From contig CAWVTK010000003.1 in NCBI GenBank assembly GCA_963933205.1, positions 1 through 35,024 on the forward strand: 35,024 nt of DNA, read 5' to 3'. The position numbers and the translations under genes are program-made. Below the pieces are notes generated by a model. That model was not told where the DNA came from. It searched no databases and worked only from the letters and a program-made list of their open reading frames with translations. The DNA comes from an uncultured Flavobacteriales bacterium. GTDB taxonomy: Bacteria; Bacteroidota; Bacteroidia; Flavobacteriales; UBA7430. Positions 6,401-14,107 of this stretch are shown piece after piece (the first letter of the stretch is position 1; each line of letters begins with the position of its first letter).

Positions 6401-6816
6401 GTGAAACCATTGCTTCTGGGGCCCAGTTTGGAGATGGAGAGACCATTAACTTTATTTCGGGTTGCGATCAAACTTTAGCGGTTGGGTGTACGGATCCACT
6501 TTACACAAATTACAGCATCGATGCAGTTGTAGATGACGGATCATGCGAATCGCTTATTATAGGTTTAACAGAGCTAGAAAACCGCATTCGCATTTACCCA
6601 AACCCTGCTAAAAGCAAGCTTAATATTCAACTCGGATCTTTAGAGGTAGCATCTATCTCTATATATCAAATGGAAGGAAAACAAATACGAGAATATACTG
6701 ATTTGGCAGATGCAGAACTAGAAATTAATATTTCGGACCTCGATGCAGGCTTTTACCATATCAAAGTCAAACTACAAAGTGGTCAAACCATTAGTAAGTC
6801 TATTATTGTGATGTAA
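3457..6816 (+). CDS. C25 family (gingipain, Kgp-like) cysteine peptidase with propeptide, Ig-like domains and T9SS type A C-terminal sorting domain
   Basis: Signal peptide; propeptide GNPDLP; YLLIVGD; catalytic NYTAHC and GNCCQS; EDYYWSVG; YHLMGDPS; GCTDP...DDGSC motif; CTD IYPNPA...GFYHIKV. Confidence 0.88.
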   Translation: MLRILQITICFFALNLSAQSSHIKTISSNVNSLHLKFITGKLQFDQISADTKDFTHISAAGLTKSYDIGNPDLPVYSKLIEVPTNGAISVEILNSSEKRTDLAALGFHQEVLPSQHSVFKNQDPTKVPFQYNESTYLSNNFYSQNLVTIERVGVMRGKSIARIQIAPLSYNPLTNELLAKKEVELKVNFENSITITPQALRTQDFDVNFSKLLNKDLGQKQAFSSNTTRMIILSDPEFEEDLQPFIQWKIRKGFDVIEAYKGQAEVGETKESMKSYVQSFYDNATEENPAPTYLLIVGDHEQIPSFDAGNHVSDMFYCEFDGNGDYLPEMIFGRFSASTRSELEIQINKTLQYEQFTMTDPSYLEEVLLVAGVDGNFAPTHGNGQINYGTDYYFNAAHNLTSYVYLYPETESNAVENAIIEHVSDGVGFANYTAHCGPGGWSDPSFEVSDVAGLTNEDQYGLMVGNCCQSNTFNGVTCFGEALLRKSKGGAVGYIGGSDNTLWDEDYYWSVGAGPISANPNYQETGLAIYDCSFHENNEQSDDWSITQGQLFQSGNWAVSESASSQAEYYWEIYHLMGDPSVLTYYGMPSDLMVSHPSALSVGMSSISVSTEQYTYVAISQNGVLLDASYTDETGNIVLSFEPISTMSPLEIVATKHNKKVYIGIVNTMSSDAPYVTCSSISLNEGELGDIEAAINQTFVLDMSLQNYGSVDATGLTIDVTTSNPNVTISYSELLLASISAQSVINMNGLVTVELNNNFADQELVNLIFTITDAEGSQWFTNNSFLVNAPELEFSSHSLSNSNSTIALGETVEITFILNNIGHATSTNGSVVVSSDLPELSINQNNLLFSSIGASLQALVTVPVTLNPDAPLGETYSISLTALSDAGLSTNYTATFTTPNCPTESSEVQINLVTDYYPNETSWVLLNSDGETIGQVGSDELESGQSYTDIFCVNMNTYYTFEIQDDFGDGLLSGGYSIVICGETIASGAQFGDGETINFISGCDQTLAVGCTDPLYTNYSIDAVVDDGSCESLIIGLTELENRIRIYPNPAKSKLNIQLGSLEVASISIYQMEGKQIREYTDLADAELEINISDLDAGFYHIKVKLQSGQTISKSIIVM

Positions 6817-6832
6817 AACCTATTGTTACTAG

Positions 6833-6862
6833 AAAAAAAAGCCGCTATTGCGGCTTTTTTTT
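6833..6862. terminator. Bidirectional intrinsic terminator
   Basis: A8-GCCGC-TATT-GCGGC-T8, just after the peptidase stop. Confidence 0.9.
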
Positions 6863-6870
6863 GTTTAGTA

Positions 6871-6937
6871 TTAACCATAACTTAACACTCTTTTAAGAAA
6901 CGATTAACCTTACATATACTTTGCATACATATATTTG
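6871..6937 (+). promoter_or_regulatory. Pho-box-like array (4 half-sites, 11-bp period) plus -7 element
   Basis: TTAACC 6871, TTAACA 6882, TTAAGA 6893, TTAACC 6904; TATATTTG 6930-6937. Confidence 0.75.
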
Positions 6938-6957
6938 CGGCAACAAAAAGAAAGAAA

Positions 6958-8178
6958 ATGAAAAAGTGGAATTTAGTATTTATACTGTTTAGCATTGCGG
7001 TAAATATCTTTGCACAAGAAGTTGTAAATAATAGTTTTGGAAACGGCTTTTACAATGTTATTGCTGCCGATAGTTCCTATAGCATGAAACTAGCTGCAAG
7101 AATGCAATCCCTATACATAGCAGATTGGGATGTTGACGAATCCGATGGTTTACACAACGGAAATTCACAATTTTTGATTAGAAGAGCACGATTGAAGTTT
7201 GGAGGTTTTGTTTTAAACCCTAAAGTAAAATACAAGATCGAACTAGGATTGTCTAACAAAGATTTAGGAAAAGTAGACGGCAGAAATAATGAAGCCCCAA
7301 AAATGATTTTGGATGCAGTTGTAAAATGGAATTTTTATAAAAACTTCACCTTGTGGGCAGGACAAACTAAGCTCCCAGGAAATAGAGAACGTGTAATCTC
7401 TTCTGCAAATTTACAATTGGTAGATCGATCTCTGGTTAATAAAAGATTTAATATTGACCGTGACATGGGTATTCAACTTCGCCATCACTTTAAATTAGGA
7501 AAGAACTTTATTGTACAAGAATCTATTGCTATATCTCAAGGAGAAGGCCGAAACGTTGTACAAGACAACTTAGGTGGATATCAATGGACGGGTAGAATAG
7601 AGGTTTTGCCATTTGGTGCGTTTTTAGGAAAAGGCGATTATACAGGTGGAGCTTTAAAAAGAGAACAAAAGCCTAAACTAGCTATCGGTATTACTTACGA
7701 TCTTAATAATGCTGTAAAAGACCGTTCTAACTTAGGGAATTATATGCTCATTGACCTTGATGCTGGCTTTGAAGAAACCTACCACCAAACAAATGTAAAC
7801 ACAGTTTTTGTTGATGCAATGTATAAGTATCAAGGATTTTCTCTTATGGCAGAATATGCCTCTAGAGAAGCAGATAACCCAATCGCAAGAAACTCAGACG
7901 GTACTCCAACCGAAAATGTTGTTCAGGTTGGAAATGGATTGAATGTTATGTCTGGCTATTTATTAAAGAATAATTTTGAGGTAACAGGACGGTATACCTC
8001 CATTAAATTGAATAAGAATATAACCGGAAAAGACTTAGAAAGACAATACACATTAGGGCTTTCTAAATATTTTAAAGGACATAAATTGAAAATCCAATCT
8101 GACATCAGTTACTTAACTATTGAAAACAATCCTACTGGTAAATTGATGTACAGACTTCAATTTGATGTACACTTTTAA
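6958..8178 (+). CDS. Outer-membrane porin, phosphate-selective porin O/P-like
   Basis: Signal peptide; basic ladder FLIRRARLKF; ILDA and GQTKLP..RE segments; DRDMG; amphipathic strands ending RLQFDVHF (terminal Phe). Confidence 0.75.
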   Translation: MKKWNLVFILFSIAVNIFAQEVVNNSFGNGFYNVIAADSSYSMKLAARMQSLYIADWDVDESDGLHNGNSQFLIRRARLKFGGFVLNPKVKYKIELGLSNKDLGKVDGRNNEAPKMILDAVVKWNFYKNFTLWAGQTKLPGNRERVISSANLQLVDRSLVNKRFNIDRDMGIQLRHHFKLGKNFIVQESIAISQGEGRNVVQDNLGGYQWTGRIEVLPFGAFLGKGDYTGGALKREQKPKLAIGITYDLNNAVKDRSNLGNYMLIDLDAGFEETYHQTNVNTVFVDAMYKYQGFSLMAEYASREADNPIARNSDGTPTENVVQVGNGLNVMSGYLLKNNFEVTGRYTSIKLNKNITGKDLERQYTLGLSKYFKGHKLKIQSDISYLTIENNPTGKLMYRLQFDVHF

Positions 8179-8203
8179 GTAAATACTATTTAATTCTCAT
8201 CTC

Positions 8204-8238
8204 AAAACGGAAATTCTAATTTAGAATTTCCGTTTTTG
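8204..8238 (+). terminator. Intrinsic terminator after the porin gene
   Basis: Perfect 16-bp inverted repeat AAAACGGAAATTCTAA-T-TTAGAATTTCCGTTTT with U-rich tail. Confidence 0.85.
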
Positions 8239-8305
8239 TTTTAGCGCTATTATAATTTGAGCTATATATTGATGTTTAAACCTTAGTTAATCATAGTATT
8301 ACTTC

Positions 8306-8313
8306 TATATTTG
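8306..8313 (+). promoter_or_regulatory. -7 element (TATATTTG) for SulP
   Basis: Matches TAnnTTTG; overlaps the ORF-track TTG start at 8311, which argues for ATG 8410 as the real start. Confidence 0.45.
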
Positions 8314-8409
8314 GTTAAATTATTAGTATTGATAAATATACGATTTATTAAATATCTACTTTTATGTAGACTCTTAGTATTAAATGAATTTAACATAAAA
8401 AGAATAAAA

Positions 8410-10245
8410 ATGAAGAAAGTATTTAATTTTAAACACTTAAAAGGAGATTTATACGGAGGAATAACGGCGGGTATTGTAGCTCTTCCCTTAGCACTTGCAT
8501 TTGGGGTTAGCTCCGGACTCGGACCAAGTGCCGGTTTGTATGGTGCAATTTTTGTAAGTTTTTTTGCGGCACTTTTTGGAGGCACCAATACTCAAATATC
8601 TGGGCCAACCGCACCAATGACGGCCGTAAGTATGGTTGTAGTTGCCGGAATAGTTGCCACATTTAATGGAGACATCGCTAATGCATTACCTGTAATACTA
8701 GGTGTTTTCTTATTGGCCGGAATAATGCAAATCGGACTGGGTTTACTTGGTTTAGGTAAATACATCAAATACATACCGTATCCTGTAGTGTCTGGATTCA
8801 TGACAGCCATAGGTGTCATCATTTTAGTTACTCAAATACTCCCCTCATTAGGTTATTACCCAAAAGAAGATGTCGTATTTGTAGATCAGTTTAAACCATA
8901 TGCAGAAGAAATAATATTAGACAATATATTAAAGGATGAAGCCGGTGAAGGTTTTTTGGTGCTCGAAAATTTTGAAGAAACCATTACACGTGCAAATTAC
9001 ATTACTCAGGAACAAATATTGAAAGAATCTCAAGTACTAGCTGGCAAAGAAGCTTCTGGTGTATTCGGTGCGCTAAAAGTTTTACCTCGAGCTCTTCAAA
9101 AAATTAACTGGATGGAATTTATTTTAGCACTCGCAACCATCATAATTATCTACGGGTTTAAGCGAATTACAACAAAAGTGCCAAGCACTTTGGTCGCTTT
9201 AGTTGTTATGACTGTTGTTGCTATTGTTTTTGGATTAGATTATCGATCAATTGAAGAAATACCCAGTGGCTTACCTGTTCCTAATTTTAGGATTTTTACT
9301 GATTTTAGTTTGAGTGGCATATCCCCGTATATTTTTAGTGCGCTTACCTTAGCTCTTTTAGGAGCTATAGATACCCTGCTTACCTCTGTTGTTGCTGATA
9401 ACATGACTAAAACCAAACATGCACCTAATAAGGAACTAATTGGTCAAGGAATTGGAAACAGTATTGCATCACTTTTTGGTGGGATTCCAGGAGCTGGAGC
9501 AACCATACGTACCGTTGTGAATATTAAAGCTGGAGGAAAAACGAGGTTGTCTGGAATGATGGCTGGTTTAATGCTCCTAATCGTACTTCTTGCACTAGGA
9601 CCTATTGCTTCTCAAATTCCAGCTGCTGTTTTAGCTGGTATACTAATTACTGTAGGTATTGGTGTGATGGATTACAAAGGCCTCAAGGCAATTCCTTTTA
9701 TGCCTAAGCCTGAAGTTATCATAATGCTAGTTGTTTTAGTACTAGCCTCTGTTTGGAATTTAGTTTACGCTGTAGGCATTGGATTAATTCTAGCCTCCTT
9801 AATGTTTATGAAAATAATTGGAGATATGACCTCAGAAAGATCCAAAGTAAGCGCCCTAAATCAAGACAAAGAACTGCCTGATAATCTTACATTATCCGAA
9901 ACGATCACGGAGCGTATTGCCCTTAAAGAAATTAAAGGACCCTTATTCTTTGGTTCTACGAGCGAATTTCAGCAATTGGCACAACAAATCCCAGATGCCT
10001 CATCCATAATTATCTTTAAAATGGGCTTAATGCCTTACATGGATCAGTCTGGTTTGTACGCTATGGAAGACCTATTAATAGACTTAGTAAAACAAGGCAA
10101 AAAGGTGATGCTTGTTCAGCTGCTCAAACAACCAAAACATATGCTAGAGTGCATTGATATTATTCCAGCATTAATTCCAACTGATCAATTATTTGAATCG
10201 ATAGAAGAATGTCTGTCATGTTTAAAAGAAACAGATCAACAATGA
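8410..10245 (+). CDS. SulP/SLC26 family anion transporter (BicA-like) with STAS domain
   Basis: GDLYGGITAGIVALPLALAFG, ISGPTAPM, NKELIGQGIGN, GATIRT; C-terminal STAS GPLFFG...MDQSG; start taken at MKKVFNF. Confidence 0.92.
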   Translation: MKKVFNFKHLKGDLYGGITAGIVALPLALAFGVSSGLGPSAGLYGAIFVSFFAALFGGTNTQISGPTAPMTAVSMVVVAGIVATFNGDIANALPVILGVFLLAGIMQIGLGLLGLGKYIKYIPYPVVSGFMTAIGVIILVTQILPSLGYYPKEDVVFVDQFKPYAEEIILDNILKDEAGEGFLVLENFEETITRANYITQEQILKESQVLAGKEASGVFGALKVLPRALQKINWMEFILALATIIIIYGFKRITTKVPSTLVALVVMTVVAIVFGLDYRSIEEIPSGLPVPNFRIFTDFSLSGISPYIFSALTLALLGAIDTLLTSVVADNMTKTKHAPNKELIGQGIGNSIASLFGGIPGAGATIRTVVNIKAGGKTRLSGMMAGLMLLIVLLALGPIASQIPAAVLAGILITVGIGVMDYKGLKAIPFMPKPEVIIMLVVLVLASVWNLVYAVGIGLILASLMFMKIIGDMTSERSKVSALNQDKELPDNLTLSETITERIALKEIKGPLFFGSTSEFQQLAQQIPDASSIIIFKMGLMPYMDQSGLYAMEDLLIDLVKQGKKVMLVQLLKQPKHMLECIDIIPALIPTDQLFESIEECLSCLKETDQQ

Positions 10246-10369
10246 TCTTCAGATTGAATTTTAGATGCTAATTGTTAAAATGCGTGAGCAGTATGTAACT
10301 GGCTTATTTTAATATCTTAAATTAGCTAAATTATACTACCTAGGTGTTGCTTACTAAATAGAGGTAGGG

Positions 10370-10436
10370 TTAACCTAAACTTAACATTAGGTTTATTTTA
10401 GTTTAACTGCAATGATCGGTTTTAGTCCTTTATTTG
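10370..10436 (+). promoter_or_regulatory. Second Pho-box-like array (11-bp period) plus degenerate -7 element
   Basis: TTAACC 10370, TTAACA 10381, TTTATT 10392, TTAACT 10403; TTTATTTG 10429-10436; same geometry as 6871-6937. Confidence 0.75.
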
Positions 10437-10463
10437 CAGAGTAAAATTTAAAAAACCCACATT

Positions 10464-10556
10464 ATGAACACCTCTACAATTACAAGAATTGAAATCAGTA
10501 AGTTTTTATACGCAACTATTTTAGTAGTCGTTTATGCAATTGCAGTATTTGCCTAA
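10464..10556 (+). CDS. Unannotated 30-aa single-pass membrane micropeptide MNTSTITRIEISKFLYATILVVVYAIAVFA
   Basis: ATG after an A-rich leader, 27 nt past the -7 element; 17 consecutive uncharged, mostly hydrophobic residues at the C-terminus; stop 34 nt before the transporter ATG. Confidence 0.6.
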   Translation: MNTSTITRIEISKFLYATILVVVYAIAVFA

Positions 10557-10590
10557 TCCTAGTTTATAGTAAATTACTACTAGTTGTTTT

Positions 10591-11733
10591 ATGAAAAAGC
10601 TCATTAGAAGATTTAGCTTTCCTGTTTCTCTATGGATTCAGAAAGATGAGAAATCATTTTTAACCTTCGTTATCGCTGCTTTTATGCTTGCGATGTTTGC
10701 AACACCTTACCCCCAAATTGCAATGTGGGTAGGCTTTTTATTTGCAGCTTATGCCGCAGTTGCAAACGACTCTATACAAACACTCGGTACATTTATTGCC
10801 TCCAATCAAGATAAGAAGTGGTGGGTACTTTGGTTGTTTATCGGAGGTATTTTTCTTTTTACAGTTGGCTACAGCTGGTTTAATTACGGAGGAGATGTTT
10901 CTCACGGTCGGTTAATGGCAAAAGGCTTTGAAATAGCTCCAACCGAATTTCACTTCTTACAAATTGCGGCACCTATTTTCCTTTTGATACTAACGCGTTT
11001 AAGAATGCCAGTATCAACTACATTTATTTTACTTACCTCTTTTGCCACTGCTCCTGCTGCAATTGGTAAAGTATTAGCCAAAAGTATGAGTGGCTACATA
11101 CTCGCGTTTTTCTTAGGTGTTGTTGTTTTCTTATTAATATCTAAACTCGCAAAAAAATACTTTGTAGGCGAAGCCAAATTTGGCTGGTCTATCGCACAGT
11201 GGATTACCTCGGGTACTCTCTGGTCTGTTTGGCTAATGCAAGATGCAGCCAATATTGCAGTATACCTTCCAAGAGACATGTCGTTTAGTGTATTCATGGG
11301 TTTTGCAATGGTTGTTTTTATAGGTTTAGGCTTGCTCTTTTATTATAAAGGAGGTAGAATACAAAAAATTGTAACAGAAAAATCAGTCATAACAGACGTT
11401 CGTTTTGCAACAATTGTCGATTTTATTTACTGTATTATCTTATTTTATTTCAAACTATACAGCTCTGTTCCTATGAGTACAACATGGGTTTTTATTGGTT
11501 TGTTAGGAGGTAGAGAAGTTGCTATGGCAATTAGAAAAACGGGAGAGCATAGCTTACTTCATTCCATAAAACTATTACTTAAAGATTTCTCATTCGCCAT
11601 GATTGGCTTATTTATATCCATTGCCATAGCAATTGGTGTAAACGATCAACTCTCACTTGCTTCTATGATGGAAACCATACCGGCAGAGTTTGCCTCCGGA
11701 ATAACAAAATTCTTTAGCAAACTAGGACTTTAA
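10591..11733 (+). CDS. Divergent PiT/PHO4-like inorganic phosphate transporter (putative)
   Basis: Polytopic membrane protein with repeated motifs VANDSIQTLGT / MPVSTT and QDAANIA / VPMSTT, resembling the PiT GANDxAN and PVSTTH signatures. Confidence 0.6.
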   Translation: MKKLIRRFSFPVSLWIQKDEKSFLTFVIAAFMLAMFATPYPQIAMWVGFLFAAYAAVANDSIQTLGTFIASNQDKKWWVLWLFIGGIFLFTVGYSWFNYGGDVSHGRLMAKGFEIAPTEFHFLQIAAPIFLLILTRLRMPVSTTFILLTSFATAPAAIGKVLAKSMSGYILAFFLGVVVFLLISKLAKKYFVGEAKFGWSIAQWITSGTLWSVWLMQDAANIAVYLPRDMSFSVFMGFAMVVFIGLGLLFYYKGGRIQKIVTEKSVITDVRFATIVDFIYCIILFYFKLYSSVPMSTTWVFIGLLGGREVAMAIRKTGEHSLLHSIKLLLKDFSFAMIGLFISIAIAIGVNDQLSLASMMETIPAEFASGITKFFSKLGL

Positions 11734-11738
11734 TACTT

Positions 11739-11771
11739 AAAACTCCCTCGAGAAATCGAGGGAGTTTTTTT
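11739..11771 (+). terminator. Intrinsic terminator
   Basis: AAAACTCCCTCGA-GAAA-TCGAGGGAGTTTT followed by Ts. Confidence 0.9.
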
Positions 11772-11822
11772 GGCTCTTAAACTCTGATATTTGTACTATA
11801 TTTACAGAAACTCATTTCAATC

Positions 11823-12518
11823 ATGCAAACGAACAATCGTATTTTACTTGTCGATGATGAGAAAGATATCCTAGAGTTCTTAAGTTACAATCTTAAGAAA
11901 GAAGGCTTTGAAGTAGCTACCTGTTCCGACGGCCAAGCTGCTTTAGATATGATCCTAGAGTTTAAGCCCAATCTTATTGTGTTAGATGTAATGATGCCCG
12001 GAATGGACGGAATAGAGACCTGTGAAAACATAAGAGCAAATCCTGAAAACGATTCCATAATCATTACTTTTTTAACTGCCAGAGCAGAAGACTATTCTCA
12101 AGTAGCAGGTTTAAATGCAGGAGCAGACGACTATATTTACAAGCCAATTAAACCCAAAGTTTTAGTGAGTAGAGTTAAAGCACTTTTAAGAAGAAAAGTA
12201 GCTATAACAACTTCTGATGAGCCATCCCAAACAATTCAAATTGCAAACCTGAATATTAACAGAGAACGTTATTTAGTAACGCTTGATGAGCTCCCCTTAA
12301 CCTTACCTCGTAAAGAATTTGAAATTTTATATTTACTGGCATCTAAACCAGGTAAAGTGTTCAAGAGAGATGAGATCTTTGAAAAAATATGGGGAAACGA
12401 CGTAGTGGTTGGTGGACGTACCATTGATGTTCATGTAAGGAAACTCAGAGAAAAGCTTGGAAGAAATTACATAGAAACTGTAAAAGGGGTTGGCTATAAA
12501 TTTAAATTAGATGAATAG
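11823..12518 (+). CDS. OmpR/PhoB family response regulator (PhoP-like)
   Basis: Receiver LVDDE, LDVMMP, FLTA, KP; wHTH RTIDVHVRKLREKL...TVKGVGYKF. Confidence 0.93.
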   Translation: MQTNNRILLVDDEKDILEFLSYNLKKEGFEVATCSDGQAALDMILEFKPNLIVLDVMMPGMDGIETCENIRANPENDSIIITFLTARAEDYSQVAGLNAGADDYIYKPIKPKVLVSRVKALLRRKVAITTSDEPSQTIQIANLNINRERYLVTLDELPLTLPRKEFEILYLLASKPGKVFKRDEIFEKIWGNDVVVGGRTIDVHVRKLREKLGRNYIETVKGVGYKFKLDE

Positions 12519-13566
12519 GCTTCCAAAGCTATATTTCAAGCTGAAAAAAAAAATAGATCAATCATGGTTGGTCTCTTTAGTTTCTTCAATTGTTTTAATC
12601 ATCGTAATGTGTGCGCACATTTTTATTTTTGATTTCGACTTAAGTTTCTCTAATGCGGTAATTCTCGTAAGCTCTGTTGGTCTTTCAAGCTTTATTTTGG
12701 TGAGGTGGTTGATTGATCAGTTTATATACAATAAAATTAAACTGATTTATAAAAACATTCAAGATTTCAAATCTAGACCAGGAGATTTAAAAGACGTTGA
12801 TTTACAACAAGCATCAAAAGATGTAGCAAGTTGGAACATAAAACGCGAAAAAGAAATTCAAAAATTGATGATACGTGAAAGCTACAGAAGACAATTTGTT
12901 GGAAATGTAGCACACGAACTAAAAACACCTATTTTTAATATTCAAGGTTATATCGACACACTGCTCGATGGTGCTATAGATGACGAAGAAATAAACCGAA
13001 AATTTTTAGAGCGCGCTAACAAGAGTGTAGCTCGAATGATCTATATTATTGAAGACTTAGACCAAATCACCAAACTAGAGGCCGGAACACTTGAAATAGA
13101 AGAGTCGCCCGTAGATATTATCGAGGTGATTACCGATGTAGTTGACCAATTGGATATGAAAGCTAAAAAAAGAAATGTTAATGTTATTGTAAAACAGCAG
13201 CAGCAAAAAGGCCGTTTTTTAGTTCGCGTAGATGTAGAAAAAATAAAACAAGTATTAATCAATCTTATCGTAAATGCAATTAAGTACGGTAAAGAAGGTG
13301 GCGAAGTACTTGTAAGAACCTACGAAATGGGTGAACAAGTATTAGTAGAAGTTGCAGATGATGGAAATGGAATTGCCTCCGACCACCTAACCAAAGTTTT
13401 TGAGCGGTTTTATCGTGTAGATAAATCTCGCGACCGAGGACAAGGCGGCTCTGGTTTGGGTTTATCAATAGTAAAACACATTATAGAAGCACACGGTCAA
13501 ACCATAAACATTAGAAGTACAGAAGGTGAGGGTTGCACACTTTCCTTTACCTTGAAAAAAGCGTAA
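12511..13566 (+). CDS. Membrane sensor histidine kinase (PhoR-like)
   Basis: Two TM helices; H box NVAHELKTP; NAIKY; DDGNG; FERFYRVD; GGSGLGL; 8-nt overlap with the regulator. Confidence 0.93.
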   Translation: MNRLPKLYFKLKKKIDQSWLVSLVSSIVLIIVMCAHIFIFDFDLSFSNAVILVSSVGLSSFILVRWLIDQFIYNKIKLIYKNIQDFKSRPGDLKDVDLQQASKDVASWNIKREKEIQKLMIRESYRRQFVGNVAHELKTPIFNIQGYIDTLLDGAIDDEEINRKFLERANKSVARMIYIIEDLDQITKLEAGTLEIEESPVDIIEVITDVVDQLDMKAKKRNVNVIVKQQQQKGRFLVRVDVEKIKQVLINLIVNAIKYGKEGGEVLVRTYEMGEQVLVEVADDGNGIASDHLTKVFERFYRVDKSRDRGQGGSGLGLSIVKHIIEAHGQTINIRSTEGEGCTLSFTLKKA

Positions 13567-13591
13567 ATAATCTAAATATAAAAGGGAACAT

Positions 13592-14107
13592 CTACTGCTT
13601 CTCAATAACTACCTTCAATAGGTCGTAATTAGTTTGAGCTTGTTTCTGTAAAGCCCCTTTTAAAAGGTAAAACATAGAACGATAAAAGACATTTGAGCCT
13701 TTTATAGTCGTAAAAATCTTTAGGACAGTTTTCTGTTCGCCCCCTTCAAAATAAACTTCTATGGTCCCATCAAACACATCTGTTAGCATGTCAAAAATAT
13801 ACTTCTCATTTTCCTGAGCCTCTTTAAGTACCTCAATTATCTCTCCACGCTCTTCTGCTTGCTCAAATTTCACTAAAAATCGCGCTCCTGGCACCCTTCT
13901 TTTTCCGCTCAATACTTCCTTCCCTAAATAGCCTTCCAGCCACTCTGCCTTTAAAGAATCATTAACGAAGGTGGCGTAAGACTTTTCAACTGAAGCATCC
14001 ACCTCAATTTGATTTTCGAACTGAAAACTAGAATGAAAAAAACCCAAACTGATGAATGCTAGTGTAATTCCAAGCAAACCTATAAGGGTGAATTTTACGA
14101 AGCGCAT
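13592..14107 (-). CDS. Membrane-anchored SRPBCC/START-like protein (171 aa)
   Basis: Start at MRFVKFTLIG (hydrophobic anchor), then FENQIEVDASVEKSYATF...W pattern typical of SRPBCC; the longer ORF-track N-terminus is antisense to trmB. Confidence 0.55.
   Translation of the reverse strand: MRFVKFTLIGLLGITLAFISLGFFHSSFQFENQIEVDASVEKSYATFVNDSLKAEWLEGYLGKEVLSGKRRVPGARFLVKFEQAEERGEIIEVLKEAQENEKYIFDMLTDVFDGTIEVYFEGGEQKTVLKIFTTIKGSNVFYRSMFYLLKGALQKQAQTNYDLLKVVIEKQ

Follow-up and report, generated by a model that had tools for sequence, protein, structure and literature searches.

Phased TTAAC-box arrays at a porin and a transporter promoter of a marine Flavobacteriales bacterium: a probable Pho box of the Bacteroidia

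Among the major recyclers of organic matter, in the sea as well as in soil and the gut, are the Bacteroidia, whose phosphate-starvation response is known to be unusual. Direct repeats phased at 11 bp are the classical kind of site bound by the regulators PhoB, PhoP and SphR. The present analysis concerns two such arrays, each with four TTAAC slots, in a contig of an uncultured Flavobacteriales bacterium (GenBank CAWVTK010000003.1; C3 below), which was analysed at its full length of 35,024 bases and is referred to as the window. The source genome is small and marine, and its assembly comprises 2,026,634 bases (2.03 Mb) in 233 contigs, with 36% G+C and a completeness of 88%. NCBI assigns proteins with 90% identity to one of its proteins to metagenome-assembled genomes of Flavobacteriales. 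One array precedes the gene of an outer-membrane porin and the other a unit formed by a micropeptide gene and the gene of a multi-pass membrane protein, P0001, which is followed by genes for a response regulator and a histidine kinase. On the strength of sequence comparisons, the two arrays are probably Pho boxes, that is, binding sites of the PhoB-type regulator encoded at 11823; we put the probability of this reading at roughly three in four.

The locus and its two array promoters

The features of the locus are as follows.

6833..6862, + strand: intrinsic terminator of the upstream C25-peptidase gene, 13-pair stem and T run, ending 8 nt before array 1
6871..6908, + strand: array 1, four TTAAC slots at 6871, 6882, 6893 (4/5 letters) and 6904, 11-bp phase
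6930..6937, + strand: -7 element of the porin unit, TAnnTTTG type, read from the sequence
6958..8178, + strand: outer-membrane porin of the phosphate-selective porin O/P family, 406 aa (Pfam PF07396, E 4.5e-17)
8204..8236, + strand: intrinsic terminator after the porin gene, 15-pair stem
8311..10245, + strand: SulP/STAS anion transporter between the two array units, no array upstream
10370..10407, + strand: array 2, four TTAAC slots at 10370, 10381, 10392 (3/5 letters) and 10403, 11-bp phase
10429..10436, + strand: -7 element of the micropeptide-transporter unit, one mismatch to TAnnTTTG
10464..10556, + strand: gene of a 30-aa hydrophobic micropeptide, conserved reading frame
10591..11733, + strand: P0001, 380-aa multi-pass membrane protein, divergent PiT-like putative phosphate importer
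11743..11771, + strand: hairpin and T run, terminator-like, identified by eye and not listed by the terminator scan
11823..12518, + strand: OmpR-family response regulator with receiver and winged-helix output domain, PhoB orthologue
12511..13566, + strand: histidine kinase with HisKA and HATPase domains, 351 aa, PhoR orthologue

Promoters of the Bacteroidota have a consensus of a -33 and a -7 element. Both arrays carry exact TTAAC in slots 1, 2 and 4 and a degenerate slot 3, their first 17 nt differ at two neighbouring positions, and the G of the -7 TTTG (6937 and 10436, respectively) lies 33 nt past the start of box 4. A first-pass annotation of this DNA had given the same box coordinates, degenerate third site, two-position difference and offset, all of which are confirmed to the base, and had described the arrays as covering the -33 region; indeed, a TTTG was looked for at the -33 position of both promoters and none was found, the place being occupied by box 4. 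A Pho box is characterised by at least two direct repeats with a period of 11 bp and by a fixed position beside or over the upstream promoter element, and both properties are present in each array. The lack of a TTTG at -33, with box 4 in its place, is what would be expected of a promoter that depends on an activator. The identity shared by the two arrays lies mainly in the boxes and the -7 element and is not evenly spread.

The terminator at 6833..6862 lies just upstream of array 1, which shows that the array begins a new transcription unit, and the terminator behind the porin gene separates the porin from SulP. The SulP gene, whose true start is likely the ATG at 8411, has a -7-type element of its own near 8297-8304, and upstream inspection bore out the earlier statement that no array precedes SulP or the two-component genes. 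SulP is missing between the porin and the micropeptide unit in three relatives (G001, G002 and G011), in which the porin directly precedes the unit, and it therefore looks like an insertion into an older cluster of porin, transporter and phoBR genes; in G003 and G005 the porin and the unit are about 4 kb apart, a distance similar to that in the window.

The stretch or a part of it occurs in 19 listed public runs from 12 studies, and six of these runs are recorded as RNA. Positions 6700-13700 were compared with contigs of four metatranscriptome runs, which represent at most three samples, of unknown phosphate status, from two studies; such contigs do not establish where a transcript starts or that it is a single one, and DNA may be present in RNA libraries. 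Both array units are covered. In two runs, each from a different study, contigs start at 6942 and 6943, 5-6 nt past the -7 element and with no loose end listed there, which gives a weak hint of a transcript start near 6942. Contigs of three runs span the hairpin at 11743..11771 from P0001 into the regulator gene, likewise a weak hint, in this case that transcription reads through into phoB; this would amount to autoregulation. Contig cover is slight or absent over the SulP stretch and over the 26 nt between 10414 and 10439, which is not evidence of silence.

Occurrence and conservation of the motif

Two copies of the pattern TTAAC-N6-TTAAC lie in the window, where 0.27 would be expected; 3 of 100 shuffles reach two copies. 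There are 15 occurrences in the whole genome, and the three-box pattern is found solely at arrays 1 and 2. These were also the only sites returned by a tolerant four-box scan of the genome, which required an exact box 2, at least four of five letters in boxes 1 and 4 and at least three of five in box 3; the same scan of 20 locally shuffled genomes gave no site when the TTTG was required and a mean of 0.75 without it. Pair matches within genes on contigs C20, C32, C38, C43, C68, C87 and C201 were set aside as probable chance, as were intergenic ones on C27, C128 and C132, which have no fitting TTTG. The first-pass annotation had proposed the motif as a means of defining a regulon and had expected a genome scan to lead to phosphatase, pst or susCD genes. 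The scan recovered the two arrays, and the regulon so defined is very small; no phosphatase, pst or susCD targets, and no such genes, were found in the 88%-complete assembly.

Two further box patterns were observed. One, at C11:22621 upstream of a DUF1573 gene, is one base off register. The other consists of three phased TTAAC boxes upstream of a fatty-acid desaturase gene (G000:C9:488-545; locus L201/L203), which are likewise displaced by one base from the usual spacing to the -7 TTTG; as judged by eye, the box pair is kept in 7/11 loci of the family and in 0/9 more distant loci. The desaturase may be a third Pho target, tied to lipid remodelling.

Conservation was examined in 61 related genomes. 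As read from the alignment printout, an 11-bp-spaced TTAAC pair is present upstream of the orthologous micropeptide frame in 17 of 21 loci (that of the window included), which represent five families. Within the genus and the family the 38 nt of array 2 are near invariant and both flanks are unalignable. Upstream of the porin, seven loci of two genera with diverging flanks share the four-slot layout of array 1 and its spacing to the -7 element, box 1 reading either TTAAC or TTTAC. In the consensus of 18 non-redundant four-box sites, which represent several gene types and orders, slots 1, 2 and 4 read TTAAC in at least 70% of the sites, slot 3 is weaker and the -7 element follows. For 76 non-identical sites, many of them orthologous and hence not independent, the spacing between the second box of the last pair and the G of TTTG was determined: 55 nt was the most frequent value (26 sites), followed by 33, 44 and 45 nt (five each) and 22 nt (three), with at most two sites for every other distance. 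The distance classes differ by whole helical turns.

These data bear on the possibility that the arrays are functionless, having arisen by chance in A+T-rich intergenic DNA or persisting as remnants of a local promoter duplication. The box is A+T-rich, as is a genome of 36% G+C, and 13 other TTAAC-N6-TTAAC pairs, several of them intragenic, occur in it. However, no shuffled genome contained a four-box array with TTTG, the boxes are conserved while flanks and spacers diverge, the uneven identity between arrays 1 and 2 is unlike that of a recent duplicate, and in many genomes the motif stands strictly in register with the -7 element. Footprints, shuffles and register thus already contradict this explanation, which is highly improbable.

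If the arrays are Pho boxes, the motif should recur at phosphate genes of relatives, as the first-pass annotation had predicted, and it does so far above chance and in register with the -7 element. The pstS set of the order comprised 30 loci from 100 other genomes, of which 22 could be placed with one PstS query and the 8 without a tblastn match were left out. The pair TT[AT]AC-N6-TTAAC lies within 260 nt upstream of pstS in 11 of the 22 loci, as compared with 0.05 loci on average and 2 at most in 1000 shuffles, and its density is 2.45 per kb upstream of pstS versus 0.064 per kb elsewhere in the same loci. In a second set of 15 pstS loci from other orders of the Bacteroidia, obtained after a truncated locus (L183) and a duplicate (L188, of L186) were dropped, the upstream region holds a perfect pair in 5 (shuffle mean 0.01) and a pair with at least nine of ten letters in 10 (shuffle mean 0.33). 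The promoter of a Na/Pi-cotransporter gene in G035 carries three phased TTAAC boxes, the proximal one starting 33 nt before the G of TTTG, and phased boxes were seen by eye upstream of pstS in G049 and at the promoters of TonB-receptor genes beside phoB in G033, G044, G047 and G053. The motif is therefore found before phosphate-acquisition genes (pstS, the Na/Pi gene and the TonB-receptor genes adjoining phoB) in many genomes.

The regulator, the kinase and the transporter

The regulator at 11823, which the first-pass annotation had inferred to act at the arrays, is the best PhoB match of the genome (216 bits versus 172 for the runner-up) and has one clear orthologue in 53 of the 61 relatives. 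The pair shows the domains that mark PhoB and PhoR, namely a receiver with a winged helix and HisKA with HATPase, and no other gene of the genome outscores it for PhoB/PhoR or reaches the curated cut-offs. The N-terminus of the kinase contains two hydrophobic segments joined by a very short loop of about 8 residues.

Neighbourhoods of regulator orthologues were compared in eight genomes of other families, with genes named by Pfam. The gene order in G049 is porin O/P, Trans_reg_C protein, pstS, pstC, pstA, pstB, phoU, TonB receptor, regulator and kinase. The regulator orthologue of G035 is divergent from a gene for a fusion of a Na/Pi cotransporter with PhoU, that of six further loci (L104, L105, L107, L108, L109 and L111) is divergent from genes for a TonB receptor and an unnamed protein of about 390-470 aa, and a glycosyltransferase gene adjoins the one of G060. 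In G007, G013, G050 and G056, pstS adjoins the regulator or the P0001 unit. Linkage to phosphate genes is thus present in six genomes (G049, G035, G050, G056, G007 and G013), and the TonB-receptor layout matches the 'PhoBR operon' cluster Fjoh_0541-0546 of Flavobacterium johnsoniae, as outlined in PMC8115612. The earlier reading is supported by these neighbours (pstSCAB-phoU, Na/Pi cotransporter, and a cluster of TonB receptor and lipoprotein), and because of them we take the pair at 11823-13566 to be PhoB/PhoR of the order, despite missed NCBIfam cut-offs.

The Trans_reg_C protein of G049 (L106, 2906-3496), encoded between porin O/P and pstS, has 196 aa and a winged helix only, with no receiver detected. 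Possibly the TTAAC boxes are read by this protein as well as by the PhoB orthologue.

P0001 has no match of its own in Pfam or NCBIfam and falls short of the PF01384 (PHO4/PiT) threshold, with no match to that model even at E<=10. At the level of the family, 16 of 39 diverse members match PF01384 at E<=0.1 (best 5.2e-7), and hhalign aligned the family with eight PiT proteins of related genomes at a probability of 87% (E 4e-6) over 186 of 374 columns, pairing two conserved Pro-x-Ser-Thr-Thr helix motifs in both halves. Searches of solved structures with the sequence and with the family profile gave nothing meaningful, the best match being claudin at E ~1. The family is large and mostly marine, with more than 7,000 matching proteins among 8,000 scored candidates and 806 clusters at 50% identity, and the atlas neighbours of P0001 are automatically named phosphate/sulfate permease. 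P0001 may thus be a distant relative of the PiT/PHO4 proteins, to which the profile match of its family and the paired motifs liken it; it differs from them in being shorter, in lacking a PF01384 match and in having a conserved micropeptide gene upstream.

A further likeness is the complementary distribution of the two. Among the 61 relatives, P0001 orthologues (75-98% identity) occur in 24 and PHO4 in 21, both together in none, and the bacterial families that hold each are disjoint. PstS, PstB, PHO4, the Na/Pi cotransporter, PhoU, PhoA-type phosphatase and PhoX were not found in the 88%-complete genome of the window; PstS, PHO4 and the Na/Pi cotransporter were likewise not found in G009, G011 and G016, which are 94-96% complete and have P0001. 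P0001 is the only recognisable phosphate importer found in the window genome, and we infer that these streamlined genomes import phosphate through the micropeptide-P0001 unit.

An alignment of 14 micropeptide sequences from several families shows five invariant residues, and the closest relative (L016) differs from the window copy synonymously in 12 codons and non-synonymously in 2. The micropeptide is accordingly conserved as a protein, and may serve the transporter as a small subunit.

Relatives of the transporter are also encoded on at least 580 stretches of viral contigs (IMG/VR), most at about 45% identity and with about 320 aa. Among the genes beside them (L224-L303) are those for a Gp23-type major capsid protein, a family-B DNA polymerase and functions in nucleotide metabolism, and the viral transporter may be a phage auxiliary gene for phosphate uptake. 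A box pair within 400 nt upstream was found in 2 of 77 viral loci, both of a weak variant, so that control of the phage copies by host PhoB is unsupported. The broader proposal, that the micropeptide and P0001 constitute an unnamed Pho-regulated family of phosphate importers which replaces PiT, Pst and Na/Pi systems in streamlined marine Flavobacteriales and is carried by phages as an auxiliary gene, is offered tentatively, at somewhat under even odds.

A predicted phosphate switch among known Pho systems

Several observations weigh against the interpretation of the arrays as Pho boxes of a phosphate-responsive PhoB. The best NCBIfam model of the regulator is PhoB of Bacteroidota, with a score of 216.7 and a cut-off of 270, and its score against TIGR02154 (213.5) is also below the cut-off (296.2). 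The kinase reaches 160.9 against PhoR of Bacteroidota (cut-off 500), its best NCBIfam models being WalK, PnpS and PhoR, all under their cut-offs, and no PAS domain was detected in its 351 aa. The strict pair is missing at 11 of the 22 pstS loci of the order, several of which are intra-operon, behind phoU or a porin gene. In G004, which belongs to the same genus and is 95% complete, several stop codons lie in the transporter match (G004:C28:114147-115847; L036, L040, L043) and the regulator match covers residues 2-156 only, while the porin is intact 11 kb away and PstS, PHO4 and the Na/Pi cotransporter were not found; the unit is thus dispensable in at least one relative. The motif marks two promoters and one weaker candidate in the 88%-complete assembly, so few that a regulon-wide pattern is not demonstrable within the organism itself. 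Moreover, genomes of one clade are not independent, and the counts overstate the number of separate observations. Finally, in other classes of the phylum the pair occurs anywhere in only 4 of 30 pstS loci, in one of them directly upstream of pstS; being frequent in the Bacteroidia and rare in the other classes, the motif is a feature of the Bacteroidia and not of all Bacteroidota. The designation 'Bacteroidota Pho box' in the first-pass annotation is therefore retained, by comparison, with regard to the Pho box and narrowed in scope to the class.

The sub-threshold scores of regulator and kinase, together with the good scores of the latter against WalK and PnpS, are what would be expected if the adjacent regulator bound the arrays in response to something else than phosphate, for instance envelope stress, osmolarity or another anion, and exerted a local control of porin and transporter. 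The position of a SulP transporter between the two units, the lack of a family assignment of its own for P0001 and the presence of the array at only two promoters of the genome could be read in the same way. Nevertheless, a different signal of this kind is unlikely, as the regulator orthologue is linked to pstSCAB-phoU and to the Na/Pi-PhoU gene in other families, the same motif stands upstream of pstS in many genomes, SulP has its own promoter without an array and the genome holds no better PhoB candidate. The predicted targets, a porin of the O/P family and a PiT-like protein, fit phosphate as the signal.

The boxes might also be real and serve another protein, or act negatively, with a repressor over the -33 place that is released on a signal. 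Overlap of the proximal box with the -33 place is equally compatible with occlusion, and the Trans_reg_C-only gene between porin and pstS in G049 suggests that more than one winged-helix reader may exist. Head-to-tail 11-bp repeats are, however, a hallmark of activators of the OmpR/PhoB family (PMC9306846 and PMC1906773). In addition, the promoters have no -33 TTTG of their own, as is the case for activator-dependent promoters, and the array travels with the PhoB orthologue across families. Only a slight chance is accordingly given to use by another protein or to repression.

The sequence of the arrays, their rarity and conservation, the link to the regulator gene and the occurrence before phosphate-uptake genes throughout the class are direct observations. 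With the Pho-box reading preferred on these grounds, we infer that the regulator binds the arrays, that it activates and does not repress, and that the signal is phosphate. Under phosphate scarcity, the PhoR-type kinase (12511) would phosphorylate the regulator, dimers of which would bind head-to-tail to the 11-bp-phased TTAAC boxes. With the proximal box at the -33 place, the bound regulator would recruit RNA polymerase to promoters that have a -7 element only, and two units would be switched on, one for a phosphate porin of the outer membrane and the other for the micropeptide and the PiT-like transporter of the inner membrane. The Pst system and PhoU are the usual partners through which PhoR senses phosphate. 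Since the genomes concerned lack Pst and PhoU and the PhoR lacks a PAS domain, P0001 or the micropeptide may also be the partner in phosphate sensing by PhoR.

Among the known systems, the PhoP boxes of Bacillus subtilis are repeated hexamers of very similar sequence with a spacing of about 11 bp, some of them intragenic; unlike the host of the arrays, the organism is Gram-positive and uses sigma-A promoters. The SphR site of Synechocystis consists of three or more 8-bp repeats with 3-bp linkers and a TTAAC core (Su et al. 2007, PMC1906773), and that core and the position before phosphate-uptake genes are shared with the arrays. The latter differ from the SphR box in belonging to another phylum, in standing in register with a Bacteroidota-type -7 element and replacing the -33 element, and in having four slots with a degenerate third. 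The Pho box of Escherichia coli comprises at least two 11-bp direct repeats bound by phosphorylated PhoB of the OmpR family, and overlaps the -35 region, with a contact between regulator and sigma factor, according to PMC9306846 and PMC1906773. Direct repeats of 11 bp that overlap the upstream promoter element are thus common to both, but the E. coli array ends about 10 bp before the -10 element, whereas in the present arrays 33 nt separate the start of the proximal box from the last base of the -7 element, and the box sequence is different.

Within the Bacteroidota, the PhoBR cluster of F. johnsoniae encodes an OprP-type porin, PhoR, PhoB, a TonB receptor, a lipoprotein and a glycosyltransferase and is induced by phosphate depletion, as stated by Lidbury et al. 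(2021, PMC8115612); the window genome, unlike F. johnsoniae, lacks that receptor, the phosphatases and the PusCD systems. The terms promoter, motif and binding site have no occurrence in the main text of that article. In Bacteroides fragilis, PhoB binds the pst promoter and is needed for induction of pstC at low phosphate (Wakimoto et al. 2013, PMC3547664); the binding was to a 512-bp fragment, and the text of that article defines no box and contains neither 'consensus' nor 'direct repeat'. No published Pho-box sequence of the Bacteroidia was found in a literature search whose reach did not extend to subscription journals, curated regulon databases and supplements, so that priority elsewhere is possible. 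The kind of site is known, then. The more novel content is the minimal Pho regulon, with a porin and an unnamed PiT-like transporter accompanied by a micropeptide.

A motif tied to the -7 element by a fixed geometry would make PhoB regulons predictable from genomes and metagenome-assembled genomes of uncultured Bacteroidia, and a regulon that has shrunk to a porin and one unnamed transporter family points to the route of phosphate uptake in streamlined ocean flavobacteria.

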